The notes beneath the pieces are model-generated. The model had not been told where the DNA came from and ran no database searches. It saw only the letters and a list, made by a program, of their open reading frames with translations. Positions 31,209 through 55,356 of a stretch of 64,000 nt of DNA are shown here, one piece after another; the first letter of the stretch is position 1, and each line of letters begins with the position of its first letter. The position numbers and the translations under genes were made by a program. Source of the stretch: Christensenella sp. UBA3217 (GTDB lineage Bacteria; Bacillota; Clostridia; Christensenellales; CAG-1252); NCBI GenBank assembly GCA_002363545.1, contig DEWF01000010.1:80412-144411 (forward strand). Direction: 5' to 3'.

Positions 31209-31237
31209 TTGACAAATAATAATAACACAATTATAAT
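31209..31237 (+). promoter_or_regulatory. Consensus sigma-A promoter of ybaK (TTGACA-17-TATAAT)
   Basis: TTGACA at 31209-31214, a 17-nt spacer, TATAAT at 31232-31237. The ATG lies at 31245. Confidence 0.7.
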
Positions 31238-31244
31238 AGAAAAT

Positions 31245-39442: not shown

Positions 39443-39536
39443 GCAAACAAACACGTTGCGTTTTTTTACGAAAATGTAAAAATTCGCGCGCGTGTATTGT
39501 ATAATAAGAAAAGAAAAACCAAAGGAGGACATCATT

Positions 39537-39953
39537 ATGTTAAGGATCGTTTACGGCGCAAAAGGCAGCGGCAAAACTTTGAAACTCATTGATGAAGCCA
39601 ATTCCATGGTGGATAAAACTGCCGGAAGTATTGTCTTTATCACTTACGTGGATCGCTACAATTTTGACCTTAATTACAACATCAGAGTTATCAATGCGGG
39701 CAACTTCGGCGTGGGTACCGAGGAGCAACTTGCCGGTTTTGTGAAGGGTGTTATGGCGTCCAATTCCGATATCGATATGCTGTATATCGACGGCGCGCAC
39801 CGCATTACGGGCAAGAGCGTGGCGGATATGCAGTACTTCTATGACGAAGTGGCAAAGGCAAGCAAAAACAGCGCGGTGGAGATCGTTCTTTCCGCCAGCA
39901 CGGATGAACTGCCCTCCTTCTTGAAGGGATACGAAAACGAAAAGGTGAATTGA
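39537..39953 (+). CDS. Small P-loop NTPase (hypothetical)
   Basis: Walker A GAKGSGKT at residues 7-14 and Walker-B-like MLYIDG. 138 aa. AAAGGAGG RBS. Confidence 0.55.
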   Translation: MLRIVYGAKGSGKTLKLIDEANSMVDKTAGSIVFITYVDRYNFDLNYNIRVINAGNFGVGTEEQLAGFVKGVMASNSDIDMLYIDGAHRITGKSVADMQYFYDEVAKASKNSAVEIVLSASTDELPSFLKGYENEKVN

Positions 39954-39959
39954 TCTTAC

Positions 39960-41444
39960 ATGAAATATATCAGCACGCGAAACGCTTCCTGCCGCGTATC
40001 GGGCAGTGAAGCCATCTTAATGGGGATCAGTCCCGAAGGCGGACTGTTTGTTCCCGAAACCTTCCCGCAGATCACCCTTGACGAGATCAAGGCGATGGGG
40101 GATATGTCGTATGCGGAGCGCTCCGCTCTTGTGATGAGCCGCTATTTGGATGAGTTTTCCGAGCAGGAACTGTTGGAAATAGCAAACCGCGCATACGCTC
40201 GTTTTGACGATGAGGACGCTTGCCCTCTCACCAAGATAGAGGAAGACCTTTATATCTTGGAACTGTGGCACGGTCCCACCTATGCTTTTAAGGACGTGGC
40301 GCTTACGGTGCTTCCGCAACTCATCTCCGCTTGCAGAGCCAAGCGTGGGGAAAAGGATAAGACCTTGGTGCTCGTGGCAACGAGCGGGGATACCGGCAAA
40401 GCGGCGCTGGAAGGCTTTAAGGACGTGGAAGGCACCGAGATCATGGTGTTTTACCCGGATGAAGGCGTGGCACACATGCAAAAACTCCAAATGATCACCA
40501 CCGGCGGGGATAATACCTACGTGGCGGGCATCAAAGGGAATTTTGACGATGCGCAAACCGCTGTGAAAAAAATCTTTACCGATCAATCGGTGCGTGACGC
40601 TCTTAAAGAGGGCGGTTACGTGATGAGCTCCGCAAACAGTATCAACTGGGGAAGACTGCTCCCGCAGATCGCCTATTACTTCTCCGCTTATGCGGACCTG
40701 TTGTCAAGCAATGAGATCACCGTGGGAGATAAGGTGAATTTTGCCGTTCCCACCGGAAATTTCGGAGATATCCTTGCAGGGTATTACGCCATGCGCATGG
40801 GACTCCCCGTGAACAAACTCGTTTGTGCCTCCAATATCAATAACGTGCTTACGGATTTCTTTACCACGGGCGAATACGACGCCACGAGAGAATTCCATAA
40901 AACCATCTCTCCCTCAATGGATATTTTGATCTCCTCCAACTTGGAGCGTCTTCTATTTGAGTACACGGGGCGTGATGACAAGGCGCTTTGCGCGTTGATG
41001 GATTCTTTGAAGAAAACCGGCAAGTATCAAGTGGACCCCACCGACTTAAAGCGCAAGCTTCCCTTCTTCGAGGGCGGCTTTGCGGATGAAGACGAAACCA
41101 TGGAAACCATCTATAACACCTTTGACGAATACGGTTATGTGGTTGATCCGCACACGGCGGTGGCTGTTGCCGTGTATAACGACTATTATTTAACTTCCGG
41201 TGATACCTCTCCCGCCATCGTGCTTTCCACGGCGAACCCCTATAAGTTTGCGCAGGACGTGTACGAAGCGGTGGGCGAGAATTACGTGGAAGATCCCTTT
41301 AAGGCAGTTAAAAAATTGCACTTCTTAACAGGCATGGATGTGCCGGAAGGCATTCGTGATCTGGAAACTATGGAGCCGCGCTTTACCGACGTGCTCTCGG
41401 GTGAGGAGATCAAGCAAAAGGTACTTGCCAAAGTAAAGGGATAA
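39960..41444 (+). CDS. thrC: Threonine synthase (long form)
   Basis: PLP-lysine context HGPTYAFKD, ATSGDTGKA and PTGNFGD. Confidence 0.9.
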   Translation: MKYISTRNASCRVSGSEAILMGISPEGGLFVPETFPQITLDEIKAMGDMSYAERSALVMSRYLDEFSEQELLEIANRAYARFDDEDACPLTKIEEDLYILELWHGPTYAFKDVALTVLPQLISACRAKRGEKDKTLVLVATSGDTGKAALEGFKDVEGTEIMVFYPDEGVAHMQKLQMITTGGDNTYVAGIKGNFDDAQTAVKKIFTDQSVRDALKEGGYVMSSANSINWGRLLPQIAYYFSAYADLLSSNEITVGDKVNFAVPTGNFGDILAGYYAMRMGLPVNKLVCASNINNVLTDFFTTGEYDATREFHKTISPSMDILISSNLERLLFEYTGRDDKALCALMDSLKKTGKYQVDPTDLKRKLPFFEGGFADEDETMETIYNTFDEYGYVVDPHTAVAVAVYNDYYLTSGDTSPAIVLSTANPYKFAQDVYEAVGENYVEDPFKAVKKLHFLTGMDVPEGIRDLETMEPRFTDVLSGEEIKQKVLAKVKG

Positions 41445-41454
41445 AAGGAACACC

Positions 41455-42438
41455 ATGAGAATTTACAGTGCTATTCAACCCACAGGATGTATCACGATAG
41501 GCAACTATATCGGCGCCGTGAAAAATTGGCTTGCTTTGCAGGATGAAAACGAGTGCATCTTTTCCATTGCGAACCAACACGCATTGACCGTCAGGCAGGA
41601 CCCGCAGGAATTCCGCGCGCGCACACTTTCCTTTTTCGCGCAGTTTCTCGCTTGCGGCTTGGATCCCGAAAAGAGCATTCTTTACGTGCAGTCCAACGTG
41701 CCGCAGCACAGCGAGCTTGCTTGGATACTCTCTTGTATGACCTATATCGGAGAACTGGACAGAATGACCCAGTTCAAGGATAAATCCCGTAAAAACGAGG
41801 ATAATATCAATGCGGGACTTTTTACTTACCCCGTGCTGATGGCGGCGGATATTCTTCTTTATCGTGCCGACTTGGTGCCGGTGGGTAAGGACCAAAAGCA
41901 ACACTTGGAGCTCGCGCGCGATATTGCGGTGCGTTTCAATAACCGTTATGGGGAAACCTTTGTGGTACCCGAGCCGTATATCCCCAAGCAGGGCGCAAAG
42001 ATCACAAGTTTGCAAAACCCGCTGGAAAAAATGAGCAAGTCTGATAAGGATCAGAACGCCACGGTTTCCATCATTGACCCCGCCGACGCCATCATGCGCA
42101 AGTTCAAGCGTGCGGTGACGGATAGTGATAACCGCATCATCTTCTCGGAAGAGAAGCCGGGCATTTCCAACCTGCTTTCCATTTATTCCGCCTTTTCGGG
42201 CGAAAGCATTGAGGCGGCGGAAAAGCGCTTTGAAGGCAAAGGCTATGGGGACTTTAAGGTGGCGGTAGGTGAAACGGTCGTGGCGGCGCTTGATCCCATC
42301 CAAAAGAAATACCAAGAGTATTTGGCGGATAAGGGCGAGTTGGAGCGCATTATGAAAGAGGGAGCGGAAAAGGCAAAGCATATTGCCTATCGTACCCTGC
42401 AAAAGGTAAAGAAAAAGATAGGATTTGTGGCTGACTGA
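41455..42438 (+). CDS. trpS: Tryptophan--tRNA ligase
   Basis: Class I motifs TIGNYIG and KMSKS, with GKDQKQHLELARDIA. Confidence 0.95.
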   Translation: MRIYSAIQPTGCITIGNYIGAVKNWLALQDENECIFSIANQHALTVRQDPQEFRARTLSFFAQFLACGLDPEKSILYVQSNVPQHSELAWILSCMTYIGELDRMTQFKDKSRKNEDNINAGLFTYPVLMAADILLYRADLVPVGKDQKQHLELARDIAVRFNNRYGETFVVPEPYIPKQGAKITSLQNPLEKMSKSDKDQNATVSIIDPADAIMRKFKRAVTDSDNRIIFSEEKPGISNLLSIYSAFSGESIEAAEKRFEGKGYGDFKVAVGETVVAALDPIQKKYQEYLADKGELERIMKEGAEKAKHIAYRTLQKVKKKIGFVAD

Positions 42439-43298
42439 TGTTTGGATACGTGACTCCCGATAAGCCGAATATGTTTATGAAGGACTATGTCCTTTTTCGC
42501 GCCTATTATTGCGGGTTGTGTCACGCCACCAAAAAGGAGAGCGGGCAGATCGCTCGTTTGACGGTCAACTACGATATTGCCTTTATCGGGCTTTTGTTTC
42601 ACGACGTGCTCGGGGAAAAGGCACAAGTGGTTAAAAAAGGGTGTATCCTAAACCCCAAAAAGCGTCCGATCATCGCGGCAAACCCTTTGATGAAAAGGAT
42701 CGCAAGGCTGAATTTGATCCTTGCGGGGCTCAAACTAGCGGATGATAAAGCGGATGGCGATAGTAAACCTCTTCGCAGGTTGGCATTTTCGCGTCAGGTC
42801 AAAAAGGCAAGAAAAAAAGAACCCGTTTTTGCTTCCCTTGCGGACGAGTGCTTGGCGCGGCAGACTGAGGAGGAAAAGTGCGGCACCATGTTAAACGGTG
42901 CGGCGGAACCTTTTGCCGATATGATGAAAAAGGTGTTTGCCGCCCTCGCAGGGGAAAAAAACACTCCCGCGTTGGAGCAGATAGGGTACCTTTTAGGAAA
43001 ATACGTGTACTTTATGGACGCCCTTGACGATTACGATGAGGACGTAAAGAAACACAGGTTCAATGCTTTTAAGAGGACCTTCGGCGCGGATACCTTCGCA
43101 CAGTTGCGCCAAGAAAAAGGGGAAGATCTTGCCTTTATTATGGAGGACTTGGTAAAGAGTGTGGAGGACGCCTATCGCGAGATGGATATGGGCGAAAACG
43201 AAGGAGTTGTGACGAATGTGCTTTGGTATGGATTGCGTAGCCGCATCCGTACCGTACTGAATAAGGAGGATGACAAATGTTCAAAAATCCGTTTGTAG
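42438..43298 (+). CDS. DUF5685-like protein
   Basis: MFGYVTPDKPNMFMKDYVLFRAYYCGLCHATKK is an N-terminus characteristic of the clostridial DUF5685 family as I recall it. Confidence 0.5.
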   Translation: MFGYVTPDKPNMFMKDYVLFRAYYCGLCHATKKESGQIARLTVNYDIAFIGLLFHDVLGEKAQVVKKGCILNPKKRPIIAANPLMKRIARLNLILAGLKLADDKADGDSKPLRRLAFSRQVKKARKKEPVFASLADECLARQTEEEKCGTMLNGAAEPFADMMKKVFAALAGEKNTPALEQIGYLLGKYVYFMDALDDYDEDVKKHRFNAFKRTFGADTFAQLRQEKGEDLAFIMEDLVKSVEDAYREMDMGENEGVVTNVLWYGLRSRIRTVLNKEDDKCSKIRL

Positions 43299-43885
43299 TG
43301 CTTGGACTGGATAAGAACGCCACGCAGGCAGAAGTCCAAGAGGCATACGAGAGGTTGCGCGAGGAGTATCGTGCCGCTATTCACAACGAAGGGGACGAAG
43401 GCAAAAAAGCCGCCAAAAAACTTTCGGAATTGGAAACGGCTTATCGTGAAGCGATGGATATTCTTTCGGGTGGCAGCGAGATCAAAGGCGTTTATACCGT
43501 GGTGGCGGATCATTTGAAGAGCCGCAACTTTGACGCCGCGCAAGCCGCGCTGGATCAAGTGTCCGAGCGTGACGCGGAGTGGCACTATTATCAATCCGCC
43601 GTTTATCACGGCAAGGGTTGGAATTACGAGGCAAAAGCCCAGCTTGATATGGCGATCAACATGGATCCCGACAACCAAAAGTACAAAGATACTTTGGATA
43701 GAATGAAAAACCACGAGCAGGGGGGCGGGGAGCGTGCTTCCGCCGAAAGACAGCGCAGTTATGATACCTACGAGAACATGCAACAAAACGGTCGCGGCGC
43801 CAGCGCGAGCGATTGTTGCGCCAGTTTGATCTGCGCCGATTGTTGCTGTGAGTGCATGGGCGGTGACCTCATTCGTTGTTGCTGA
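43277..43885 (+). CDS. J-like domain / TPR-like protein with a Cys-rich tail
   Basis: J-domain helices (NPFVVLGLDKNATQAEVQEAYERLREEY...AAKKLSELETAYREAM) without an HPD tripeptide, a TPR-like middle, and the tail CCASLICADCCCECMGGDLIRCC. Confidence 0.6.
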   Translation: MFKNPFVVLGLDKNATQAEVQEAYERLREEYRAAIHNEGDEGKKAAKKLSELETAYREAMDILSGGSEIKGVYTVVADHLKSRNFDAAQAALDQVSERDAEWHYYQSAVYHGKGWNYEAKAQLDMAINMDPDNQKYKDTLDRMKNHEQGGGERASAERQRSYDTYENMQQNGRGASASDCCASLICADCCCECMGGDLIRCC

Positions 43886-43888
43886 GGA

Positions 43889-44419
43889 ATGAAAAAGATC
43901 ACTGGGAGAGAGATAGCGCTATCGGGTATCACGGCGGCATTCGCAGTGATCGCGGTGGTGCTTTCTTATTATTTGAACGTGCTGTCCGTCACCTTTTTGG
44001 CGGTTGCGTCGGTGGTGCTCACCCTTCCCATGATGGCGGGGAGCGCGCGCGGGTCCATTCTTGCTTACGCCGCGGCTGCGGGGCTCTCCTTTATCTTTGT
44101 TTCCTATATAGCGGCACTTCCTTTCGTGATCATCTTCGGGCCCTATCCCATTTTGGATTATTTTTTGCGTAAATACTTAAAAAAGAGGGTGATCGTTCTG
44201 CCCATTGAGATCGCTTTTGCAAACCTTTCTTTCCTCGGGTGCTATTTTGCCATCGGGCTTTCTCGTGCGGATTTTCCCTTTTTGGAAAACCTTCCCGTTT
44301 GGCAACAATACTTTTGCATTTTTCTCGGGCTCACGATCGTGTTCGTGATTTTCCATTTTGCTTTTACTTCACTTTACGATACGTTAAACAGGCGTTTGTC
44401 TAAGGTTTTAAAACAATAA
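43889..44419 (+). CDS. Polytopic membrane protein (hypothetical)
   Basis: 176 aa with 5 hydrophobic helices. Starts 4 nt after the previous stop. Confidence 0.5.
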   Translation: MKKITGREIALSGITAAFAVIAVVLSYYLNVLSVTFLAVASVVLTLPMMAGSARGSILAYAAAAGLSFIFVSYIAALPFVIIFGPYPILDYFLRKYLKKRVIVLPIEIAFANLSFLGCYFAIGLSRADFPFLENLPVWQQYFCIFLGLTIVFVIFHFAFTSLYDTLNRRLSKVLKQ

Positions 44420-44421
44420 AA

Positions 44422-44769
44422 TCAATATCCCAAAAACTTTGTTCCAAGGTCTAAAACTCTTGTCACGTAGGGACTCGCAAGGGAGTAATAGATCACTTTT
44501 CCCTTGCGTCTTGTTTTCACAAGGCGCAGGGCGCGCAAAAAGGCAAGTTGGTGTGAAACGGTGCTTTGTTGTTGCGAGAGCATCAGGCAAAGGTCCGTCA
44601 CGCACATTTCGGTTATGCAAAGAGAAGAAAGAATTTTTACCCGCGTGGCGTCGCTGAATACCGAGAAAAAATCCGCCAAGTCCGCAACCACTTCGTTTTT
44701 TGGCAGGTAGTATTTGATAACGTCTTCATCGTGTTCGGAAAGAGATAGGGATCGCCCGTTTTTTTTCAC
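44422..44769 (-). CDS. ArsR/SmtB-family metal(loid)-responsive repressor
   Basis: SDATRVKILSSLCITEMCVTDLCLMLSQQQSTVSHQLAFLR. The winged-HTH carries a CVTDLC variant of the ArsR CVCDLC site. Confidence 0.85.
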   Translation of the reverse strand: MKKNGRSLSLSEHDEDVIKYYLPKNEVVADLADFFSVFSDATRVKILSSLCITEMCVTDLCLMLSQQQSTVSHQLAFLRALRLVKTRRKGKVIYYSLASPYVTRVLDLGTKFLGY

Positions 44770-44864
44770 CTTTTTATCCTACGGGGCATATACCACTCCT
44801 GTCAAGGTTGAAGCAAGTCGGCTTTTGACGAATCTATGTAAAAACGGCGAAAAAGGAGGAAACT

Positions 44865-45035
44865 ATGCTGAATAGCGGCATGCTTTTGATGCTTTTGCTT
44901 TTATTGATCTATACCTTTGGCGGCAACGGCTCTCTTACCACCGAGAACCTTACCCTCATTATCCTTGCGCTCTCCTTCCTCGTGGCAGGAAACCAAAATG
45001 ATAATAACGGATGCGGCTGTGACCGGGTGAACTGA
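44865..45035 (+). CDS. Unannotated 56-aa membrane peptide with a C-terminal GCGC motif
   Basis: AAAGGAGGA RBS 5 nt before the ATG at 44865. My translation is MLNSGMLLMLLLLLIYTFGGNGSLTTENLTLIILALSFLVAGNQNDNNGCGCDRVN, with TGA at 45033-45035. It is below the 60-aa cutoff of the ORF track. Confidence 0.5.
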   Translation: MLNSGMLLMLLLLLIYTFGGNGSLTTENLTLIILALSFLVAGNQNDNNGCGCDRVN

Positions 45036-45037
45036 AA

Positions 45038-45094
45038 AATGCGGAATGCGGGATTTTCCAATGCGGAATTCGGAATGCGTAATGCAGAATTGCA
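45038..45094. repeat. AATGCGG-type heptamer array, block 1 (about 8 units)
   Basis: AATGCGG AATGCGG (GATTTTCC) AATGCGG AATTCGG AATGCGT AATGCAG AATTGCA. Confidence 0.85.
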
Positions 45095-45175
45095 CCCTTT
45101 CCGGGGTCCCCGCAAAAAGTTTTTTGTAGGGGTGGTTTTAAAGGGGGCTTGATTGCCGCTATAAGCGGGAATGGG

Positions 45176-45287
45176 GGATTTTCTAATGCGGAATGCGTAA
45201 TGCGTAATGCGGAATTTCCTAATGCGGAATGCGGAATGCAGAATCAGCTATGCAATGTCTAATTCGAAATGCGGAATTCGGAATTGT
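45176..45287. repeat. AATGCGG-type heptamer array, block 2 (about 13 units)
   Basis: GGGATTTTCT, then AATGCGG AATGCGT AATGCGT AATGCGG ... AATGCGG AATGCGG AATGCAG ... AATGCGG AATTCGG AATTG. Confidence 0.85.
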
Positions 45288-45375
45288 AGGAGCCTAAAAA
45301 CGCACCTATTTTACACTCTTTGCAAAGGGGGATAGTCTGCCACCATCGGTGGGAGAGGGAAATTTTTTCTGATAG

Positions 45376-45573
45376 TCAGCAAAGCAGATCTTCAAGATCC
45401 ACGTGAAAAAAATCTGCTAATTCCAAAATTTGCGATATGCTCGGTTCGGTGTACCCGGTTTCCCAATGGGAAATGGTTTTTAACGTAATGTGAAGGGCTT
45501 TCGCCAAGTCCTGCTGCGTTATTTTGTTTTCCTTTCGCAAACTTTTCAGATTGTTTTTGAAATTGTTATTCAT
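45376..45573 (-). CDS. XRE-family HTH transcriptional regulator (Cro/cI-like, 65 aa)
   Basis: KITQQDLAKALHITLKTISHWETGYTEPSISQILELADFF is a canonical XRE HTH. Confidence 0.88.
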   Translation of the reverse strand: MNNNFKNNLKSLRKENKITQQDLAKALHITLKTISHWETGYTEPSISQILELADFFHVDLEDLLC

Positions 45574-45592
45574 GCTTTTAGTGTATCAATTA

Positions 45593-45635
45593 TTGAGAAA
45601 TACGGGTTGACATCTCAAAAATTGAGAATTATAAT
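45593..45635 (+). promoter_or_regulatory. Consensus promoter of the giant lipoprotein gene with an embedded palindromic operator
   Basis: TTGACA at 45607-45612, a 17-nt spacer, TATAAT at 45630-45635. The spacer contains the perfect palindrome TCTCAA-AAA-TTGAGA (45613-45627). An extra TTGAGA half-site lies at 45593-45598. Confidence 0.65.
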
Positions 45636-45685
45636 ATAGTTATTACACCACACACGTTTGTTTTACAAACGGCCCCGGAGGAAAA

Positions 45686-48600
45686 ATGAAAAGGTTTTTG
45701 CTTATTTTCGTTATCTTATCACTCAGCCTTTCGCTGCTGTTGTTCGTTGCTTGTGACGTACTTTCGTCAACTCCCGGCAACGAAGATTCAGCGAACTACG
45801 GCATTGCCACCGTGTACGCTTACGCACAAGAAGCGGGGTTCACGGGCACTTTGGAAGAGTTGATAGCGGCTTTCAAAGGGGAATCGGGCAAAAGCGCGTA
45901 TGACCTCGCTGTGGAAAACGGGTATTCCGGTACGGTGAACGATTGGCTCGCCACCCTGATAGGGTCTTCGGGCAAAAACGGTATCACTCCGCATATCGGA
46001 AGTAACGGCAACTGGTTCATTGGGGAAATGGATAGCGGCGTAAAAGCCGCGGGTGATAACGGCGTTGGCATTACCGGCATTGACAAAACGGGCACGCAAG
46101 GCTTGGTGGATACTTACACCATCACGCTCAGTGACGGTCAAACTTACACCTTTACCGTCACCAACGGACAGAATGGCGTTGGACAAAAAGGGGATGACGG
46201 CGTTGGCATTTTGAAGATAGAACATACCGGAACTGATGGCTTGATAGATACTTACACCATCACCCTTACCAACGGTCAAACTTACACCTTTACCGTCACA
46301 AACGGAAGCAATGGTATAAACGGAACCAATGGTATAAACGGAACCAATGGTACGAATGGTATCAATGGCACAAACGGCACGAATGGCGTGGATGGCGTAG
46401 GAATTAAGAGCGTGGATAAAACCAAGACCGAAGGCTTGGTGGATACTTATACCATCACGCTCACCAACGGTCAAACTTTTAACTTTACCGTCACCAACGG
46501 TAAGGATGGCGCTCCCTCCGGTGGTGCGGTTCAGGATGAGAATGCCTCCACTCCCGATTCTTATTTCCGTTTTATCTATGATGAAGAAACCGAGTCTTAC
46601 GCGATCATGGCGCGCTATCAGGATATGCCCTCCCGCGTGGTGATCCCCTCCTCCTATAACGGAAAGCCCGTTACCGGCATTTTGGATAATGCATTTGGGG
46701 GAAGAAACACGATAGATGAGGTCGTGATCCCGCGTACCATAGTAGAAATCGGATATCGTGCATTTGCCGATTGCCGGTGGTTGAGTTCCGTTATTTTTGA
46801 AGAGGGAATCGAACTCACGGAAATTGGTGCAAGTGTATTTTCCTGGTGCACAGCGTTGCGATCCGTGGTCATTCCCGCGAGTGTAACGCGCATTGGATCC
46901 GGGGCGTTTTATTTTTGTTATCAATTGGAGCTCGAAGTACCGGATACCGTCACGGATATCGCGAGTGACGCGTTTGTGAATTGTGCATCCGTGACTCTTC
47001 CGTTCATTGTTTCCGAAGAGCAAATTGCGCAAATGCGTTCGTCAATAAGCAACTATTTGAAGAACTGGCTGATGATTCATGCGCAAGAGACCATCACAAA
47101 TCAATCCTATAATTTAAAAACTGATCTTATGGCTCAGAGCCTTTTTAACTTTTATACACGTGGTGTAGCTTGTGTTCCGAGTTGGTCAGTTACTTTCAAA
47201 AGCGCAACCTATACCTATACCGTTGTGGCATCTTGGAATAGTGGATCCATTAAATTGACGTTTGAGGAGGATGCACGAACCATAGTGTATGATGGATGGG
47301 CAGGAGAACACACCAAAACAACGGATTATATCGAAATAGATGCCGACGACGCTGCTTCCGACAACTTGAACGCGATCATCGAAGCCATGGCTTATTCCGT
47401 GAATGAAGTGACCTCTCAGAGCGTCACCGGCAGGTTCAGCGTGGAAGGTACATTAGCCTTGCAAGTGTACGATATAAAATATTCGCTGAACGTTCGGGCA
47501 AATATCGATCGCAAAAACGCGAGTAACACCCAAATTGCCGCAAGATTGATGAGTGCATCGGGCAAAGAACTGTTAGGGGTGTTTTACGATGGGTCCGAAA
47601 TGGCAGAAGAGAATAGACTTACCGTTAAAGTGGGAGATGGGGCACCCAAGTATATCAATTACGCAAACGTTCTTTCTCTCTTGAATTTGATCCTCTCTCC
47701 GACAGCAGAGAACCCGGGCAAGGGCATCTTTGAGAGTGAATACGAAGGGGACGAGGGCAACTACTACGAGAACGACGTGCACGGTCTCAGCGATCTCCTC
47801 GGCTGGTATGGCATTCAAAATGGTGACCTCATGGAAGGCGTTCTCGATTTTTTGGCGCACGGCTATGAAAGCGAGGACGGCGAGCGCGTCCTCGTGGATA
47901 TCAATCTTGGTGAAGCGATGGCGTACATCGCTGATTTGATCGCGGACTTCGGCATAGACCTCGATCAAATTCCTTTCTTAAATGAGATGGGGCTTGACAT
48001 CAGAACGATGCACGGCTTGCTTGGTCATATCTCTCTTGCCGGATCTTTGAACGGCGATAGACTGTCCGGATTGGAGTTCAGCGTGAATATCCCGGAGAGT
48101 TGTTTCTATTTCTCGGCGGATGAAACCGGAAAGAAATTTGAGTTTTCAAGAGGATTTGCATTGAGTTTGTCCCTGCAAGATTTCACCTTCTCTGCCGACA
48201 ATACTCTGTCTAACGTGATCCCCGAAAGGGTAAAAGAAGAGGCGGAGTACTTTAATCCGACCGATATCGATATCCAAGGGGACGTGACCGTATCTTTGCC
48301 CCAAGATCAAAGCACTTATCGATTCCGCTTCGTATCGGAAGTCAACCTGTTTGAGTTGTTGCAAAACAAGACGAACAGCAAAGCAAAGTTTGTGTTGAAC
48401 ATTCAAAAATCGCCGGGCACGTATTTTGATCCGTACTATGCTTGCAACTTCCTAACCGTCACTTACGAGCAGGAGGAAAAGATCCTATGCGTGAGCGGCA
48501 CCATGCTTGGTTTGGATGACGGCTCGCAATGGTACACGTTGGAGTTTTTTGATCGTGACACCGTAAAGAATGAGATCCTTCGTTGGCTTGGACTTGATAA

Positions 48601-49429
48601 TTGGCAGGGTTTGGAATGGGATGAAGAAAGGGGCATTCTTATTTGCTATAATGATGGAGAGACAATTGCCAAGGAAAGCGCTAAAATCGTGTTCTCTTAT
48701 GCGCTCGTGCCCAATCTGGTGCGGTATTATTACGCTCTGAAGGAAGCGGAATCCGCAAGCGCAGCGGTGGGCTCTTTCTCCATTGCGGATATTCTTTCCG
48801 GCGTGGGCTCGTTCTTTAAAGTTATTGAAAGCGATAATATTTGGATAGACGGTAATCAAGCTGACATCCATTTGAGCAATGATGAATTGAAGAGTTTGTT
48901 AAAGGTGTTTGATTCGTTATTCCAGATCAATCTAACGGATTTAGCGCGTAACGGTGATTGTATAGATTTCGTTTTGAATACGGAAGATTATAATGACGGT
49001 CTGTTGCTTTCATTGCGATTCAGAAGTATAACCTACGCCTTGGAAGCACATTGGGTAAATGACAGATCACTGAACGTTGAGTTCCGTTTGACCTGGGAAA
49101 ACGGCAGACAAAAGGCGTATTCCTTTACGTTGGATAGAGGAGATATCAGTTTGTCTATGGAAAAGAAGGCGTCATCCGGAGAGGTGGAAGAATCTTATCA
49201 AATAGATATCCTATCCATTCATTTTGCGCAGGATAAAGAGCTTTCGGATGTTATCGATTCCTTCATTCCCTCTTTAGAACAAAAGGAGGCGGCAATGCCG
49301 CTTCTCTCGCCGGATGGGACCGGGGCAGGTACGGAACTTGCAAGAGCGGTGCTGTTATTCTTAAATCGTGATACCGTATATCCCATAGCCTCCACGATCG
49401 GAAGGTTGTTTATTAGTTTGATCGTGTAA
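45686..49429 (+). CDS. Giant surface lipoprotein: tail-fibre-like repeats, collagen-like tract, BspA-type LRR, 800-aa unknown C-terminal region
   Basis: Lipobox LLFVAC (Cys22). Three ~45-aa repeats of G.DGVGI..I..T.T.GL.DTYTITLTNGQTYTFTVTNG (aa 123-273). Eleven G-X-Y triplets (aa 207-239). LRR_5-like repeats (aa 315-435, e.g. IPRTIVEIGYRAFADC, IPASVTRIGSGAFYFC). Confidence 0.8.
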   Translation: MKRFLLIFVILSLSLSLLLFVACDVLSSTPGNEDSANYGIATVYAYAQEAGFTGTLEELIAAFKGESGKSAYDLAVENGYSGTVNDWLATLIGSSGKNGITPHIGSNGNWFIGEMDSGVKAAGDNGVGITGIDKTGTQGLVDTYTITLSDGQTYTFTVTNGQNGVGQKGDDGVGILKIEHTGTDGLIDTYTITLTNGQTYTFTVTNGSNGINGTNGINGTNGTNGINGTNGTNGVDGVGIKSVDKTKTEGLVDTYTITLTNGQTFNFTVTNGKDGAPSGGAVQDENASTPDSYFRFIYDEETESYAIMARYQDMPSRVVIPSSYNGKPVTGILDNAFGGRNTIDEVVIPRTIVEIGYRAFADCRWLSSVIFEEGIELTEIGASVFSWCTALRSVVIPASVTRIGSGAFYFCYQLELEVPDTVTDIASDAFVNCASVTLPFIVSEEQIAQMRSSISNYLKNWLMIHAQETITNQSYNLKTDLMAQSLFNFYTRGVACVPSWSVTFKSATYTYTVVASWNSGSIKLTFEEDARTIVYDGWAGEHTKTTDYIEIDADDAASDNLNAIIEAMAYSVNEVTSQSVTGRFSVEGTLALQVYDIKYSLNVRANIDRKNASNTQIAARLMSASGKELLGVFYDGSEMAEENRLTVKVGDGAPKYINYANVLSLLNLILSPTAENPGKGIFESEYEGDEGNYYENDVHGLSDLLGWYGIQNGDLMEGVLDFLAHGYESEDGERVLVDINLGEAMAYIADLIADFGIDLDQIPFLNEMGLDIRTMHGLLGHISLAGSLNGDRLSGLEFSVNIPESCFYFSADETGKKFEFSRGFALSLSLQDFTFSADNTLSNVIPERVKEEAEYFNPTDIDIQGDVTVSLPQDQSTYRFRFVSEVNLFELLQNKTNSKAKFVLNIQKSPGTYFDPYYACNFLTVTYEQEEKILCVSGTMLGLDDGSQWYTLEFFDRDTVKNEILRWLGLDNWQGLEWDEERGILICYNDGETIAKESAKIVFSYALVPNLVRYYYALKEAESASAAVGSFSIADILSGVGSFFKVIESDNIWIDGNQADIHLSNDELKSLLKVFDSLFQINLTDLARNGDCIDFVLNTEDYNDGLLLSLRFRSITYALEAHWVNDRSLNVEFRLTWENGRQKAYSFTLDRGDISLSMEKKASSGEVEESYQIDILSIHFAQDKELSDVIDSFIPSLEQKEAAMPLLSPDGTGAGTELARAVLLFLNRDTVYPIASTIGRLFISLIV

Positions 49430-49455
49430 AAACAGACTTTGCAAAATGGTTAAGA

Positions 49456-49486
49456 AAAATATGCGGCGTTATTGCCGCATATTTTT
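49456..49486 (+). terminator. Rho-independent terminator
   Basis: Stem ATATGCGGC/GCCGCATAT followed by TTTTT. Confidence 0.8.
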
Positions 49487-49541
49487 ACGTTCTCGCGCTT
49501 TCCCTCTTTTGTTTTCCGATATTATGTAGTATAATATCGGT

Positions 49542-51365
49542 ATGAACGATGTGATCAAATTGAAATTGAAGGAGCTCCCCCTAGACAGCGGGGTGTACAT
49601 GATGCGTGACATAAGTGGCGCCATCATTTACGTGGGCAAGGCGAAAAATTTGAAAAATCGCGTGCGTTCTTACTTTAATGCCTCTCCCAAAGCGGAGAAG
49701 GTGCTTTCCATGGTGCAAAAGGTTGCGGACTTTGATTATTTGATCACGCGCAGCGAAGAGGAAGCCCTCGTGCTGGAAAACAACCTGATCAAACTGCACA
49801 AGCCTTTTTACAACATCCTTTTGAAGGACGATAAACTTTACCCCTTTTTGCGAATAGATACTTCCAAACCTTTCCCCAAGGTGGAGGTGATACGCCGCCT
49901 GAAAGCGGACAAGGCCCGTTATTTCGGTCCTTATATGGTGGGCATATCGGCTGCCGAGATGCTTAGGCTCATTCATTCCGCGTTTCCCATTCGTGATTGC
50001 TCGTTAAATATGGATAAGATCCCCAAAAACCATCGCCCCTGTTTGAACGCGCATATCGGGCGGTGTTTGGCGCCTTGCAGCGGGGCGGTATCACGCGAAG
50101 AATATCACCGCGTGTTGCAGGACGTGATCTCCTTTTTGAAAGGAAATGATAACACCATCAAGGAGAATTTGGAGCGTAAGATGCAAGAAGCCTCCGAAGC
50201 CATGCAGTACGAGCAGGCTCTGCGCTACCGCAACGCGCTTTCCACGTTGGACAAGATGATCCGCCGTCAGATCGCCGCCCTTCCCAAGGACTTTAACCTG
50301 GATATTTTCGGGCTGGCTTCGGGCGGGGACGGCATGGCGGTGGCAACCGTCATTGTGCGCGGCGGCAAGATGGTAGGCGGTGAAAAATTTGCCATTCGGG
50401 ATGGGAGCATAGATCTTGCGGGCACTCTTTCCAGCTTTATCAACCGTTATTATGATGGCGGCATCGTGGCGGACGAAGTGGTGAGCGCCATAGAACTGCC
50501 CGATGCGGCGGCGCTTTCAGAACTCCTTTCGGAAAAGAAGGGGGAAAAGGTGGCGGTATCCACCCCCAAAGCGGGCGTGCGCAAACAGCTTGCGGATATT
50601 GCCATGAAAAACGCCATGGAGTACCTGTCCCGCAGTACGGCGGAACTTTCGCGCAAAGAGCGCCTGACCACGGGCGCCTGCCGTCAACTTGCGGATCTTC
50701 TTTCGCTTTCTTCCACTCTTGACAGGATAGAGTGCTTTGATATCAGTCACACGAGCGGCACCGATAAAGTGAGCTCCATGGTGGTTTTCACCAAAGGGGA
50801 AAAGGACGCCAAAATGTACCGCACCTTCCATATCAAAACGGTGGAAGGAAACAATGATTTTGCTTGCATGAAAGAAACGTTGGACCGCCGTTTTGCGCGG
50901 CTCAAAGAGGGCAAGGACGCTTCCTTCGGAACTCGTCCCGACCTGTTGGTGATAGACGGCGGCATCGGGCAGGTGCATTACGCCATGCAGTCCATGAAGG
51001 AAGCGGGGGAAAGCATTCCCATGATCGGGCTTGCGGAGCGGGAGGAGATCATCGTGCTCCCTTCGGGAGAGGAGATCATTTTGCCCAAGTCAAGTTTTGC
51101 ACTTCGGCTACTCATACGCATTCGTGACGAGGCGCACCGTTTTGCCATCACTTTCCATAGAAAACTGCGCGGAAAACGCAGTGTAAAGAGCATGCTTTTG
51201 GATATTGAGGGAATGGGAGAAAAGCGTGTGGCGGCGCTTCACAAAGCCTTTGGCTCGCTGGATGAACTCAGAAACGCCACCGCGGAGGAGATAGCCTCGG
51301 TAAAAGGCATTCCCGCCCCTCTTGCGGAAAAGGTGGTCGCGTTTTTCAAAGAAAACGCGAAATAG
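49542..51365 (+). CDS. uvrC: Excinuclease ABC subunit C
   Basis: GIY-YIG motif (GVYMMRDISGAIIYVGKAKNLKNRVRSY), a UVR domain (YEQALRYRNAL), an endonuclease V-like domain and a C-terminal (HhH)2. Confidence 0.95.
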   Translation: MNDVIKLKLKELPLDSGVYMMRDISGAIIYVGKAKNLKNRVRSYFNASPKAEKVLSMVQKVADFDYLITRSEEEALVLENNLIKLHKPFYNILLKDDKLYPFLRIDTSKPFPKVEVIRRLKADKARYFGPYMVGISAAEMLRLIHSAFPIRDCSLNMDKIPKNHRPCLNAHIGRCLAPCSGAVSREEYHRVLQDVISFLKGNDNTIKENLERKMQEASEAMQYEQALRYRNALSTLDKMIRRQIAALPKDFNLDIFGLASGGDGMAVATVIVRGGKMVGGEKFAIRDGSIDLAGTLSSFINRYYDGGIVADEVVSAIELPDAAALSELLSEKKGEKVAVSTPKAGVRKQLADIAMKNAMEYLSRSTAELSRKERLTTGACRQLADLLSLSSTLDRIECFDISHTSGTDKVSSMVVFTKGEKDAKMYRTFHIKTVEGNNDFACMKETLDRRFARLKEGKDASFGTRPDLLVIDGGIGQVHYAMQSMKEAGESIPMIGLAEREEIIVLPSGEEIILPKSSFALRLLIRIRDEAHRFAITFHRKLRGKRSVKSMLLDIEGMGEKRVAALHKAFGSLDELRNATAEEIASVKGIPAPLAEKVVAFFKENAK

Positions 51366-51457
51366 ATCTCTTATTACGCGCGCCTACGGGTTGATTTTTA
51401 CGTAGTGCATAAGTTATAATAAAAAATAACCCAACCTTTCGGGAGTATCAAGAAGAA

Positions 51458-52270
51458 ATGAAATACAAACTGATCACAAGTGACTTTGATAACACCGTTT
51501 ACGACGGAGAAAGGGTGCATCCCGAAGTAAAAAAAGCCATTGCGGCGTATCGCCGTGCGGGTGGCAAGTTCGTAATTGCCACGGGGCGTGTTTTCGCTTC
51601 CATCTTACATAAATTGCCTTGCATAGGCGAGGTGGATGACGAGGTGATAGCCTGTCAGGGCAGCGCCATTTATCGCGCTTCCACCGGGGAAGTGTTGGAG
51701 CGTTTTCCTCTTTCTCCCGAGCTGGCGAGCAAGGCGGTGCAATACTTTGAAAGCAGAGGGATCGTGTGCCACGCGTATGCCGATATGGCGTTTTACACGG
51801 CTGAAAAGAATCCGCTTTCCGAGGCGTATGCCGATTACTGCGAGGCTCGTCCCACTTATCTCGGTCGTCCGCTCAGTGAGTTTTTGCCCGAAATGGCGTT
51901 TACCAATAAGATTATCGGCATCTTGGGCATCAGCGAGATAGACGGGCACATCCAAGCCCTTGCCGAGTACCTTGGCAAAGAGGCGGAAGTGACCAAAAGT
52001 TCCCCCATCTTTTTGGAAGTGACCTCGGCAAATGCGGGCAAAGGAAACAGCTTACGCGCGCTTGCCAAACGCCTTGGTATTCCCATGGAACAAACGGTGG
52101 CAGTGGGCGATAACTTAAACGACCTTTCCATGGTGGAAGCGGCGGGGCTCGGCGTTTCGGTGGAAAACGGCGTGGATAAATTGAAACAAAAGGCCGATCT
52201 GATCGTGCCCTCGGTGACGGATGGGGGCGTGGCTCGTTTGATAGAACGCATCTTGGATAACGATCTTTGA
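51458..52270 (+). CDS. Cof-type HAD-IIB phosphatase
   Basis: LITSDFDNT (DxD), ATGR, KGNSL and GDNLNDLSM motifs. Confidence 0.85.
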   Translation: MKYKLITSDFDNTVYDGERVHPEVKKAIAAYRRAGGKFVIATGRVFASILHKLPCIGEVDDEVIACQGSAIYRASTGEVLERFPLSPELASKAVQYFESRGIVCHAYADMAFYTAEKNPLSEAYADYCEARPTYLGRPLSEFLPEMAFTNKIIGILGISEIDGHIQALAEYLGKEAEVTKSSPIFLEVTSANAGKGNSLRALAKRLGIPMEQTVAVGDNLNDLSMVEAAGLGVSVENGVDKLKQKADLIVPSVTDGGVARLIERILDNDL

Positions 52271-52287
52271 GTGAAAAGGAGGCGGAA

Positions 52288-53244
52288 ATGTTAGGACGCT
52301 ATAACACGGCAAAGGAAGAAAGGCAGGACGCCAGCGCGGTATGCGCCGCGGATTTTGCCGCCGCGCTCGGGCTCAAAGCCGTGGTGTTAGAGCAAAATGC
52401 GGAACTGCATTTTTCCACTTCGGCGGTGTGCCGCCCCGGCCTTTTCCTTGCGGGATACGAGGAGTTTTTTGCGGCAAGTCGCGTGGTGGTGTTCGGCAGT
52501 GCGGAAATGAGCTTTGCCATGAGTTTAGACGCCGCGCTTCTTTCAAAAAGGATAGATAAACTCTTTTCTCTCGGCATCCCTTGCGCGGTCATTGCACGTA
52601 ATATCAAACCCCTTCCCGCGTTTATTGCGGCGGCGGAAAAATACAAAGTGCCGCTCTTTACTTCTTCCCGCATCACGGGGCAGATAGGCTCCGCCATCAC
52701 CGATTATATCAACGATCTGCTTGCCGAGGAGATCACCATGCACGGCGTGCTGGTGGACGTGGCGGGCACGGGAGTGCTTTTAACGGGTGTGAGCGGCATA
52801 GGAAAGAGTGAAGTGGCGTTGGAACTGGTGCATCGTGGGCACCGCTTGGTGGCGGATGACAGCGTGATCATTCGCAAAAAGAACGGCGTGCTGATCGGTC
52901 GTGCGCCCGATATGATCCGCCATATGCTGGAAATTCGCGGTGTGGGCATCATAAACGTGGAACGCTTGTTCGGTTCGGTTGCCGTGCGCGTAAACAAATC
53001 GGTGGACGCCGTGTTTGAACTTGTTGCTTGGGAAGAGGGCAAAACTTACGAGCGTATCGGTTCGGAAAGCTTGACCCAAGAGATCTTGGGCGTCAGTTTG
53101 CCCAAACTGGAAATACCCGTCAAGGCGGGCAGGAATCTCTTTGTGGTCATTGAAGCCGCCGTGGCTTCTCTCCGTTTGAAGGAGATGGGGTACAGCGCTC
53201 CCTCAGAGCTGGAAGAAAGACTGAAAAAAGCAAACGATCGCTGA
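52288..53244 (+). CDS. hprK: HPr kinase/phosphorylase
   Basis: HGVLVDVAGTGVLLTGVSGIGKSEVALELVHRGHRLVADD and LEIRGVGIINV. ATG after an AAAGGAGG RBS. Confidence 0.93.
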   Translation: MLGRYNTAKEERQDASAVCAADFAAALGLKAVVLEQNAELHFSTSAVCRPGLFLAGYEEFFAASRVVVFGSAEMSFAMSLDAALLSKRIDKLFSLGIPCAVIARNIKPLPAFIAAAEKYKVPLFTSSRITGQIGSAITDYINDLLAEEITMHGVLVDVAGTGVLLTGVSGIGKSEVALELVHRGHRLVADDSVIIRKKNGVLIGRAPDMIRHMLEIRGVGIINVERLFGSVAVRVNKSVDAVFELVAWEEGKTYERIGSESLTQEILGVSLPKLEIPVKAGRNLFVVIEAAVASLRLKEMGYSAPSELEERLKKANDR

Positions 53245-53285
53245 GAAACATATATTATACCGTTTATCATTAAAAGAGGCGGTAT

Positions 53286-54188
53286 ATGGAAAAGACTATC
53301 ACGGCTTTACGAGAAAGAGAGATCCCCTTTGCCGAGGGAGTATCTGCCGAAAGGCTCACCACCTTTGGGAGCGGCGGCAGAGTGCGCTGTGTGATCAGCC
53401 CGCGTTCGGTCAAGGAATTGCGCTTTGCATTAAAGGTTCTATCCGACAGAAGGGTCCCCTCGCGTGTGATCGGAGGTGGGAGCAACGTGCTCTTGCCGGA
53501 CCAAGGCTATAACGGCGCGCTTTTGTCCCTTGCTTGTTTTGATCTTTTGCAAGCGCGCGGCTGTGAAGTCAGCGTGGGCTCAGGTGTTAAAATGCCTCTT
53601 TTTGCCGCACGTATGGCACAAACGGGGCTTTGCGGCGCGGAATTCCTTTGCGGCATTCCCGGGGTGATGGGCGGTGGCGTCATCACCAATGCGGGCGCGT
53701 TCGGCGGCATGCTGTCGGACCTGCTTACAGAGGTCACCTTTCTTTCGGCGGAAGGAGAGGTGGTGAGGTTGCCCGCCTCTTGTTTGACCTTTGGATATCA
53801 CTCGGCGGTGCTCCCCCGGGGTGCAACGGTGCTATCCATGAAAATGCGCCTTGCCCAAGGAGATAGCGTGAGCATCAAAGCGCGTATGCGTGAGATGATG
53901 AACAAGCGGCTTAGCAGTCAACCGCACGAACGTTCGGCTGGGAGCGTGTTTCGCAAAACGGGGAATACGTCCGCCGCCATCTATATTGAGCAAACGGGAC
54001 TCAAAGGCAAGAGGATCGGCGGTGCGCTCCTATCCGCCAAGCATTGTAATTTTATTGTGAACGAAGGTTCGGCAACCACACAGGAGTATTATGCGCTTGC
54101 TGAACTTGTGAGAGAAAGAGTAGCGGCGCTTTGCGGCGTCAGACTGGATTACGAGGTGGAAAGAATATGCTCACCGACAAAGAGTTAA
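53286..54188 (+). CDS. murB: UDP-N-acetylenolpyruvoylglucosamine reductase
   Basis: FAD-binding domain (TTFGSGGRV, IGGGSNVLL) and the catalytic region SAGSVFRKT. Confidence 0.9.
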   Translation: MEKTITALREREIPFAEGVSAERLTTFGSGGRVRCVISPRSVKELRFALKVLSDRRVPSRVIGGGSNVLLPDQGYNGALLSLACFDLLQARGCEVSVGSGVKMPLFAARMAQTGLCGAEFLCGIPGVMGGGVITNAGAFGGMLSDLLTEVTFLSAEGEVVRLPASCLTFGYHSAVLPRGATVLSMKMRLAQGDSVSIKARMREMMNKRLSSQPHERSAGSVFRKTGNTSAAIYIEQTGLKGKRIGGALLSAKHCNFIVNEGSATTQEYYALAELVRERVAALCGVRLDYEVERICSPTKS

Positions 54189-55111
54189 AGGAAGAATTGC
54201 ACGCCTTGGAAGGGGCGGGAGCGGGAGATCGCTATATCTCCGCGCTGCTTTCTTTCGGCGGTGCCCTCGGCAGAGAGGAAAAGGGGCTTTATCTTTCCTA
54301 TACCACCCACGATTACCTTCTTGCTTGGGAAATGGCGGGGTATATGCGCGAGCATTATCGCTATCACGGCGAGGTGAGCATCGTGGATCCCGATGACAAA
54401 CGGCGCAACCGCGTGTATTGCTTTGAAATGCGGGGCAAGGCGGCGTTGGACCTTTTGTCCGACCTTGGCAAGATCAAGCGCGAAAAGGAAGAGATCGTTT
54501 CCTTTGACCTGGGCGTAAAAAGCAAGATCGCTTCGGAAAAGGATGCGGGAGAGTACGCACGCGCCGTGTATCTTTCCGTGGGCAGTTTGACCCGCGCGGC
54601 GGAAGGGTTGCGCTTGGAAATGGTGTTTGAACTGGAAAGTGATGCGGACGCTTTCTTGGCTTTTTTGAAAAAGGAAGATATTCTTCTCAGCAAATCGGAA
54701 AAGGGCAATAAGATCACGTTGCACACCCGTAAGGGACAAACCATCTCGGACTTTTGCGCCTTGATGGGGGCAAACAAGAGCGTGCTCGTTTTGCAGGACA
54801 TGCTGGTGCAAAAATACGTGGACGGTAAAACGGCGCGCGCGGGGAACTTGATGCTTGCCAATACCGACAAATCGGTTTCCGCGGCTATCCGCCAATATCA
54901 TGACGCTGTCACCTTGCGTGACGCGACCTGCGGTTTTATCGGGGTGCCCAAGGAGATCAAGGACGTGGCGGAAGCGCGCATTGAGCACGCGGATATTTCC
55001 TTGGATGAACTTGTGGAACGCTTGCCCGAAAAGATCACCAAGAGCGGGCTCTACCATCGCTTGCAAAAGTTGCACGAGTTAGCGGAGAAGATCAGGGAGG
55101 AAGGCAAATGA
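54167..55111 (+). CDS. whiA: Sporulation/cell-division regulator WhiA
   Basis: 314 aa. The N-terminus (LTDKELKEEL) has a degenerate LAGLIDADG-like fold pattern. C-terminal HTH (DISLDELVERLPEKITKSGLYHRLQKLHELA). Confidence 0.8.
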   Translation: MLTDKELKEELHALEGAGAGDRYISALLSFGGALGREEKGLYLSYTTHDYLLAWEMAGYMREHYRYHGEVSIVDPDDKRRNRVYCFEMRGKAALDLLSDLGKIKREKEEIVSFDLGVKSKIASEKDAGEYARAVYLSVGSLTRAAEGLRLEMVFELESDADAFLAFLKKEDILLSKSEKGNKITLHTRKGQTISDFCALMGANKSVLVLQDMLVQKYVDGKTARAGNLMLANTDKSVSAAIRQYHDAVTLRDATCGFIGVPKEIKDVAEARIEHADISLDELVERLPEKITKSGLYHRLQKLHELAEKIREEGK

Positions 55112-55344
55112 AAAGCAAGCATATTGCGTTAAAGGATCTATCTCTTTCCCTTGCCAAAACGGTGGCGGAAAGGGCGGCGGCATATAACGCCGATATCCGC
55201 ATCGTTTACCGTGACAAGGGCGCGAACGCCAAGAGCTTGATGGGGATCATTGCCCTCTCTTATAAAAAGGGCGCGGAATTGCTGCTGGTTGCCGAAGGGC
55301 GGGATGCGGCTCGCGCGATCGAACAATTGAAAAGCATTCTGTAA
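55108..55344 (+). CDS. crh: HPr-family protein, Crh-like (Ser46 context present, His15 absent)
   Basis: 78 aa. ANAKSLMGIIALS matches the HPr Ser46 loop. The position equivalent to His15 is occupied by LSLSLAKT. Confidence 0.7.
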   Translation: MKSKHIALKDLSLSLAKTVAERAAAYNADIRIVYRDKGANAKSLMGIIALSYKKGAELLLVAEGRDAARAIEQLKSIL

Positions 55345-55356
55345 ACGGAGAACCTT

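Follow-up and report, generated by a model that had tools for sequence, protein, structure and literature searches.

Here, we describe a compact regulatory unit in a 64,000-nucleotide stretch of the genome of Christensenella sp. UBA3217 (Bacillota, Clostridia; GenBank assembly GCA_002363545.1, contig DEWF01000010.1, positions 80,412 to 144,411; hereafter the window, to whose first letter all coordinates refer unless another locus is named), in which a gene for a 65-amino-acid (aa) XRE-family repressor stands divergent from a promoter that precedes a gene for a 1247-aa lipoprotein, the cargo of the unit. Two palindromic operators, O_R and O_L, lie within and beside this promoter. In the mechanism that we propose, an XRE dimer on O_R, which fills the 17-bp spacer of a sigma-A promoter of consensus strength, would block RNA polymerase and keep the lipoprotein gene off, and a second dimer on the weaker O_L, over the extended -10 of the XRE gene itself, would limit XRE synthesis (negative autoregulation); once the level or activity of XRE drops, the cargo promoter would fire at full strength. 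We assign a probability of about 75% to this regulatory logic, that is, to occlusion through O_R, throttling of XRE through O_L and use of the module as a reusable gate for accessory envelope genes. A Cro/CI-type repressor with operators in and beside a promoter and a divergent, autoregulated gene is a textbook kind of system. What is new is the tightly conserved ~90-bp control architecture across dozens of loci of uncultured gut and rumen Clostridia, the position of this control unit before interchangeable envelope-protein genes, the boundary between the two falling precisely on the -10 hexamer, and the 808-aa domain of an orphan lipoprotein family in the window's cargo. A full-text literature search found neither the module nor its operator described.

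The XRE gene (45376-45573, minus strand) encodes a single-domain protein with a Cro/CI-type helix-turn-helix that scores 62.3 bits against Pfam HTH_3 (cut-off 23; 4e-17; residues 9-63). Thirty-three bases separate its start codon from the plus-strand cargo promoter (45607-45635), whose -35 hexamer TTGACA (45607-45612) and -10 hexamer TATAAT (45630-45635), set 17 nt apart (spacer 45613-45629), match the consensus at 12 of 12 positions. The window has two such perfect TTGACA-N17-TATAAT promoters, where dinucleotide-preserving shuffles would lead one to expect 0.02. The spacer contains O_R, the perfect palindrome TCTCAA-AAA-TTGAGA (TCTCAAAAATTGAGA, 45613-45627), which occurs only once in the window; since the 64 kb hold 37 perfect 6-3-6 palindromes, the chance of finding one inside a given 17-nt spacer is about 0.002. 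O_L (TATCAA-TTA-TTGAGA, TATCAATTATTGAGA, 45584-45598) is one mismatch from perfect symmetry, and its centre lies 29 bp upstream of that of O_R. The divergent XRE gene, the perfect promoter and the palindrome in its spacer had been pointed out in an earlier note made from the sequence alone, and all are found here. The same note had reported a third TTGAGA half-site; this TTGAGA (45593-45598) stops 15 nt short of the palindrome and is the right arm of O_L.

A protein search returned 67 homologues of XRE (55-79 aa, 51-100% identity), and relatives that are 55-83% identical keep the operators, their spacing and the promoter in ~28 other loci. The locus of a related species (L090, XRE 83% identical) reads TATCAATTTCTGAGA and then TTGACA-TCTCAAAATTGAGAAT-TATGAT, with no substantial cargo behind it; L091 (75%) reads TATCAAATATTGAGA and then TTGACA-TCTCAAAAATTGAGAAT-TATAAT before a gene for a 240-aa membrane/zinc-ribbon protein, its 29-bp core being identical to that of the window; and L094 (57%) reads TATCAAAAATTGAGA and then TTGACT-TTCTCAAATATTGAGAG-TACAAT before a gene for a 478-aa zinc-ribbon membrane protein. 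These loci show the pattern T[AC]TCAA-N3-TTGAGA plus TTGAC[AT]-(N)TCTCAA-N2-3-TTGAGA-(N)-TA[TC]AAT before cargo genes that are unrelated to one another. Metagenome contigs were scanned for the exact pattern TTGAC-N1-2-TCTCAA-N2-3-TTGAGA-N-TAYNAT, yielding 27 loci. An O_L-like site (T[AC]TCAA-N3-TTGAGA) lies 29-30 bp from O_R, with a 17-nt spacer, at 24 of them, and a divergent XRE gene with the recognition region KT[IV]SHWETGY[ST]EPS was read in 21 of these 24; it was not found in L097 and L110, which are one and the same sequence, or in L101, whose contig breaks off 44 nt ahead of the promoter. The other three matches, L098, L100 and L114, have no O_L and are unrelated. Sequence comparison shows the ~330-bp unit of XRE gene plus control region to be conserved as a module among uncultured Clostridia of gut and rumen.

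Different palindromes are found in five cassettes whose XREs represent four other recognition helices (L004a; L004b and L080; L023; L024). All six cassettes compared nevertheless have a 17-nt spacer, one palindrome inside it and a second, similar palindrome 25-32 bp upstream, and the palindrome sequence changes along with the XRE recognition helix, which is the pattern expected for cognate repressor-operator pairs. With a domain above the gathering score and operators that covary with its helix, the XRE protein falls in the Cro-CI HTH_3 family and is predicted to bind these sites; that it would act on them is well supported. The proposal of a repressor-occluded promoter in the earlier note is borne out to the extent that operators, spacing and promoter are kept across this XRE subfamily, and that unrelated XREs have other palindromes in the same positions. 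One of the loci with a different helix, L004, encodes P0023, the closest full-architecture homologue of the window lipoprotein. There, an uncalled 68-aa XRE is divergent from TTGCAA-TACGAGAAATTCTCGTA-TATAAT with TACGAAAAAACTTCGTA 29 bp upstream, and the next gene, for another lipoprotein with the same type of N-terminal head, has its own XRE and TTGACA-TATAGGAGAAAGTCCTA-TATAAT. P0023 is thus found under an XRE of a different specificity class, which shows that such modules have been recruited independently to this kind of gene.

Beyond the -10 hexamer the cargo gene varies from locus to locus, mostly among predicted membrane proteins and lipoproteins. Some 26 modules of the TCTCAA class have a readable cargo open reading frame (ORF); the products of ~19 are predicted lipoproteins or have at least one transmembrane segment, including small multi-transmembrane and zinc-ribbon membrane proteins, and the remaining seven have no predicted transmembrane segment or signal peptide. 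At least one more cargo, that of L115, appears from its N-terminus to be a lipoprotein of the leucine-rich repeat (LRR) type. Another orthologous group (P0167, P0169 and P0172; XRE 72-77% identical) keeps a stable place between an amylase gene and ParA/rubrerythrin genes and has a RanBP-type zinc-ribbon membrane cargo.

The break at the -10 hexamer is best seen in L090, which is collinear with window positions 38171-55912 at 72-77% nucleotide identity. Common to both are, in this order, thrC, trpS, genes for a DUF5685 protein, a DnaJ-like protein, a 176-aa membrane protein and ArsR, a 56-aa ORF, XRE with its operators and promoter, uvrC, a HAD gene, hprK, murB and whiA. Homology is lost directly behind the -10 hexamer (45635) and picks up again at 49499, which is 43 nt short of the start of uvrC; between these points L090 has ~400 bp, in which the sole ORF, at the position of the lipoprotein gene, encodes 87 aa (L090 6644-6907, minus strand; TTG start, no Shine-Dalgarno (SD) sequence, no family match). 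This ORF may be what a deletion left behind, or else a degenerate cargo that follows an intact XRE-controlled promoter. Because the ArsR-XRE-promoter block is present next to uvrC in L090, it is resident, and only the untranslated region, the lipoprotein gene and its terminator are variable. The earlier note had taken the whole block from ArsR to the lipoprotein gene for an accessory insertion, to be checked by presence or absence in relatives; that comparison finds the lipoprotein gene missing from the syntenic L090 locus and narrows the accessory part to this gene. The gene is slightly poor in G+C (0.43-0.49; flanks 0.50-0.55). It is intact in six further assemblies of the species, which show 0-8 nt differences, no variation in repeat length and an identical control region; with gene and control region near-invariant within the species, any switching would have to be transcriptional.

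The cargo transcript is predicted to begin with a 5' untranslated region (45636-45685, plus strand) in which a small hairpin (CGTTTG-TTTTA-CAAACG, 45655-45671) and an SD sequence (GGAGG, 45677-45681) were read from the sequence, and to end at an intrinsic terminator (AAAAATATGCGGC-GTTAT-TGCCGCATATTTTT, 49455-49488, plus strand; fold z = -4.6) that lies inside the window-specific segment. With this terminator and a separate -10 for uvrC, the lipoprotein unit would be monocistronic. The near-empty interval of L090 had raised the idea that the XRE-divergent promoter controls uvrC; for the window this was rejected, as the terminator and the -10 of uvrC itself intervene. An Rfam scan of 44300-49700 found no RNA family.

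No SD sequence lies upstream of the ATG of the XRE gene. Its proposed promoter is an extended -10 (TGATACACT, 45580-45587, minus strand) 6 nt before this ATG: on the minus strand, the gene-proximal arm of O_L reads TTGATA and runs on as TTGATACACT, which gives TG-n-TACACT, so that O_L overlaps the proposed promoter. A consensus scan offered TTGAGA-18-AATAAT (45618-45589) as an alternative, and both candidates overlap O_L. The same geometry of TTGATA plus NNNT stands beside O_L in the 24 metagenome loci (TACAAT, TATAAT, TACTAT, TAAAAT and similar), about one third of which have exactly 6 nt from the extended -10 to the ATG, the remainder having a longer leader with an SD sequence. In L004a, which has a different operator, the XRE promoter has this geometry too (...TTCGTAGAAT, 6 nt, ATG). 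A double role of the XRE-proximal arm as part of this promoter would explain why O_L always has the imperfect TATCAA in place of TCTCAA. The XRE mRNA is probably leaderless, and from the geometry we infer that XRE would repress its own transcription through O_L.

Leaderless starts seem usual in this organism, because uvrC and a ybaK-like gene show the same arrangement, with TATAAT ~5-7 nt before an ATG that has no SD sequence. The second perfect TTGACA-N17-TATAAT of the window (within 31209-31248) precedes the ATG (31246, no SD sequence) of the latter gene by 7 nt; the N-terminus of this gene is YbaK/EbsC-like by reading of the translation only, and its transcript is a further candidate for a leaderless one. 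The apparent promoter of uvrC has TATAAT at 49531-49536, 5-6 nt before an SD-less ATG (region 49518-49545), which suggests a leaderless mRNA; this -10 sits in a perfect 9-nt inverted repeat (CCGATATTA-N7-TAATATCGG) that may be an operator, and the L090 homology block resuming at 49499 (~74% overall identity) covers this promoter region.

The lipoprotein ORF (45686-49429, plus strand) has the four parts that the earlier note had read in it: a repeat-containing head, a collagen-like tract, leucine-rich repeats and ~800 further residues. Its signal peptide (45686-45754) ends in the lipobox LLFVAC (MKRFLLIFVILSLSLSLLLFVAC), with Cys23 as the predicted site of acylation; it matches a Gram-positive lipobox pattern. 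The stalk-like head (45755-46525, residues ~24-290) has the motifs SAYDLAVENGYSGTVNDWL (residues 70-88) and GSNGNWFIGEMDSGVKA (residues 105-121) and three DTYTIT beta-meander repeats (DTYTITL..GQT..FTVTNG; residues 142-161, 188-207 and 253-272), and its structure model is of low confidence (predicted local distance difference test score, pLDDT, ~50). These motifs are common to large Firmicute surface proteins, with 2631 matches at E <= 1e-3 among 8000 candidates scored. The tract of 11 Gly-X-Y (GXY) triplets (46304-46402, residues 207-239) scores 18.5 bits against Pfam Collagen, below the cut-off of 27.2, and is not counted as a collagen domain. The BspA/TpLRR-type domain (46667-46993; whole domain residues ~290-440) scores 76.2 bits against Pfam LRR_5 (cut-off 27.7; 2.8e-21; residues 328-436) and is modelled with a pLDDT of ~90; Foldseek places it with TpLRR (6mlx, E = 6e-9, probability 1.00) and also with the gut-bacterial LRR surface proteins 4gt6, 4oju and 4fs7. 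An adhesin or ligand-binding role is suggested by the LRR module and the predicted surface location.

The 808-aa C-terminal domain (47003-49429, residues 440-1247) has no match in Pfam or NCBIfam, and profiles of its family (12- and 35-member alignments) found nothing among PDB sequences or in Pfam, in keeping with the absence of a recognisable motif remarked on before. Its AlphaFold model, built on a 12-sequence alignment, is beta-rich and multi-domain (pLDDT 75.9) and has no global fold match in PDB or BFVD (BFVD TM-scores <= 0.09), so that the structure prediction and fold search proposed in the earlier note yielded no well-known family. The family has 11 proteins in 5.8 billion clusters and 39 representatives (E <= 1e-3) among 1.84 billion. 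Most members are stand-alone lipoproteins of 850-930 aa (MKKKLGIILAILLCVVLVFTFVAC...), a few have N-terminal Flg_new or LRR_5 extensions, and the fusion point in the window protein is the start of the mature stand-alone domain. Apart from the window protein, only P0023 combines head, LRR and C-terminal domain (28% identity over 82% of the query). The suggestion of a domesticated phage receptor-binding protein is not supported: phage tail PHROGs match the head at residues ~42-163 (4e-12 to 1e-4), the only other PHROG matches are in the LRR, no tail-fibre receptor-binding domain was detected with PHROG or BFVD, and the module is absent from IMG/VR and GenBank phages.

Several other loci encode members of the C-terminal family. 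A paralogue (L002/P0125) is present in the metagenome-assembled genome (MAG) GCA_003542435, which also has the locus of the window (contig L003, 99.7% identical). In MAG GCA_003530375 (L001), the gene for P0121 is a hybrid: its 5' 1 kb and the upstream aspS-gltX match the paralogous locus L002/P0125, and its 3' part and everything downstream, from uvrC onward, match the window at 99.3%, the two parts meeting at one clean crossover within 19 identical nt (GCGCACGGCTATGAAAGCG; L001 3100-3700 compared with window 47578-48180 and L002). Such a hybrid would stem either from chromosomal inversion between paralogues in inverted orientation or from chimeric assembly. In L005-L009, from two species, stand-alone C-terminal-family genes (P0130, P0122) are followed by the same two Pfam-less genes, one for a 235-253-aa protein on the opposite strand and one for a predicted lipoprotein of 453-480 aa; together, they may form a conserved three-gene surface module.

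Several points weigh against the proposed gate. Repression, autoregulation and a leaderless start are each deduced from the layout of the sites. XRE has neither a sensor domain nor a conserved partner gene, and the operator spacing of 29 bp, ~2.8 helical turns, is not ideal for face-to-face cooperativity. Among representative genomes, a divergent XRE adjoins ~5 of ~60 genes for lipoproteins with the same head and LRR, a lower bound from a scan with a weak 3-seed hidden Markov model; XRE control is thus not general to this protein class, and was rejected as a rule for it. Structural hints for the 808-aa domain are only local and of low TM-score (LolA/RseB/ependymin-like and LptD-like open beta-sheets).

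A bolder version, in which the XRE/O_L/O_R/promoter unit is a portable epigenetic toggle that lets part of a population show accessory envelope proteins through bistable promoter competition, is in our view unlikely. XRE, when present, would silence the strong cargo promoter and free or favour the weak, leaderless promoter of its own gene that lies back to back with it; after a loss of XRE, the cargo promoter would dominate the shared region and XRE would stay off, leaving heritable ON and OFF states with no DNA rearrangement. Paralogous modules with identical operators (such as those of L091 and the window) could then form a common regulon in one genome, and cargo exchange at the -10 hexamer together with recombination between paralogous lipoprotein genes (as in the L001 hybrid) would add variation at the level of sequence.

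The simpler gate was also weighed against explanations in which the repressor serves another purpose. XRE scores against phage repressor PHROGs (phrog_8, 3e-19) and NCBIfam RstR and weakly against the PADLOC 'control protein' model (E = 1.4e-3), its small size and two-operator layout are like those of C proteins and Cro, and the head of the lipoprotein shares motifs with phage tail PHROGs. The region might accordingly be the immunity or control region of a mobile element, either a remnant or still functional (prophage cI/Cro, the repressor of an integrative and conjugative element, or the C protein of a restriction-modification (R-M) system), with the lipoprotein as a moron-like or superinfection-exclusion cargo. 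This is improbable, since the neighbourhood has no phage, integrase, conjugation or R-M genes, the housekeeping flanks are collinear with those of a related species, the operator/promoter pattern has 0 matches in IMG/VR, the module DNA is unmatched in 50,697 phage records, phage-encoded XREs are at most 52% identical and the C-terminal model has no match in BFVD. R-M genes are missing from the window neighbourhood and from the homologous loci alike, which sets XRE apart from C proteins, and the conserved flanks and lack of IMG/VR or phage DNA matches set it apart from prophage immunity repressors. A phage, plasmid or defence origin of the module was rejected, with the IMG/VR pattern scan, phage blastn/tblastn and PADLOC all negative or generic. 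Containment in place of regulated display is what a toxin-antitoxin-like or addiction pair would achieve, with XRE silencing a product that is harmful when over-made. Many cargoes are small multi-transmembrane or zinc-ribbon membrane proteins (84-240 aa), a kind often toxic when over-expressed; the antitoxin families HipB, MqsA and PezA are among the weak NCBIfam matches, and the promoter is of maximal strength. We nonetheless find such a pair quite improbable: the 1247-aa cargo of the window is a secreted lipoprotein that has adhesin-type domains and belongs to no toxin family, no cargo tested has a defence, toxin-Pfam or PADLOC match, the genes are divergent and not co-transcribed like those of type II systems, and XRE has no toxin-binding C-terminal domain.

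That the palindromes are bound by another factor, such as the ArsR-family neighbour, or have no regulatory role, with XRE regulating something else, could be argued from ArsR adjoining the unit in both the window and L090 and from the pairing of XRE and site being read from sequence alone. Yet the operator tracks the XRE recognition helix across ~28 loci that have no ArsR neighbour and changes when that helix changes, and ArsR shares a separate divergent promoter region with the 56-aa ORF, the pair being inverted in L090 with the XRE module unaffected; this explanation is very hard to credit. Hardest of all to credit is activation of the cargo promoter by XRE in the manner of MerR. A site between -35 and -10 is where MerR-family activators bind, but MerR-type activation needs over-long spacers of 19-20 bp, at every locus here the hexamers are already of consensus type and the spacer has the optimal 17 bp, and XRE is an HTH_3 and not a MerR protein.

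Among known systems, the unit resembles the right-operator switches of lambdoid phages (lambda, 434, P22), in which a small HTH_3-fold protein acts on graded palindromic operators between two divergent promoters, one site occluding a strong outward promoter and another overlapping the regulator's own promoter, as is predicted here. The mRNA of lambda cI from P_RM is leaderless, as that of XRE probably is. In contrast to these switches, the unit has no prophage context, a single regulator with no antagonist, two operators in place of three and no RecA-cleavable or oligomerisation domain, and it stands before an envelope-protein gene. R-M C proteins (C.AhdI, C.PvuII, C.Esp1396I) are likewise XREs of ~65-80 aa whose own promoter has a pair of adjacent palindromic operators that differ in strength, and a concentration-dependent autoregulatory circuit on a portable unit is predicted here as well; C proteins, however, are co-transcribed with the restriction endonuclease gene and activate before repressing, whereas here the genes are divergent, R-M genes are lacking and the main site is in the spacer of an already-consensus promoter. 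The lipoprotein shares an LRR_5 domain and a predicted surface-exposed, lipid-anchored position with BspA/TpLRR proteins (Tannerella BspA, T. pallidum TpLRR, pneumococcal PcpA, group B Streptococcus HupY/LrrG), but its LRR covers only ~110-150 residues, its bulk is the repeat head and the 808-aa orphan domain, and it scores 23.6 bits against the HupY/LrrG equivalog (cut-off 1250). A short GXY run recalls the collagen-like proteins Scl1/Scl2 and BclA, from which it differs in having 11 triplets with no proline and 14 bits against the SclB equivalog (cut-off 325). The motifs SAYxLAxxNGYxGTxxxWL and IGxNGNWxIG of the head also occur in phage tail proteins, as in tail-fibre N-termini.

Two further features lie beside the XRE gene. 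The ArsR/SmtB-family regulator (115 aa) and the divergent 56-aa hydrophobic ORF (ending NNGCGCDRVN) are inverted as a unit between the window (44422-45035) and L090 (7319-7926), with flanks that keep their orientation in both genomes; a search around ArsR found no convincing flanking inverted repeats, and an invertible ArsR segment was rejected on this ground. The non-coding stretch that separates the 56-aa ORF from the 3' end of the XRE gene has (at 45036-45290) ~16 copies of a heptamer repeat (consensus AATGCGG) in three clusters. Eleven of the 12 window matches to AATGCGGAATGCG (<=2 mismatches) fall in this stretch, which has no counterpart in L090.

The understanding of XRE repressors is unchanged by these findings. 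If the proposed gate is true, the 65-aa repressor and a ~90-bp DNA segment that includes operators, promoters and the leaderless start would make a delimited regulatory part for gut Clostridia that are poorly studied and mostly uncultured. The module would also draw attention to an orphan family of 800-aa lipoprotein domains, with just 39 representative clusters in 1.84 billion proteins, and searching downstream of the module would be a rule for spotting accessory envelope genes in these genomes.

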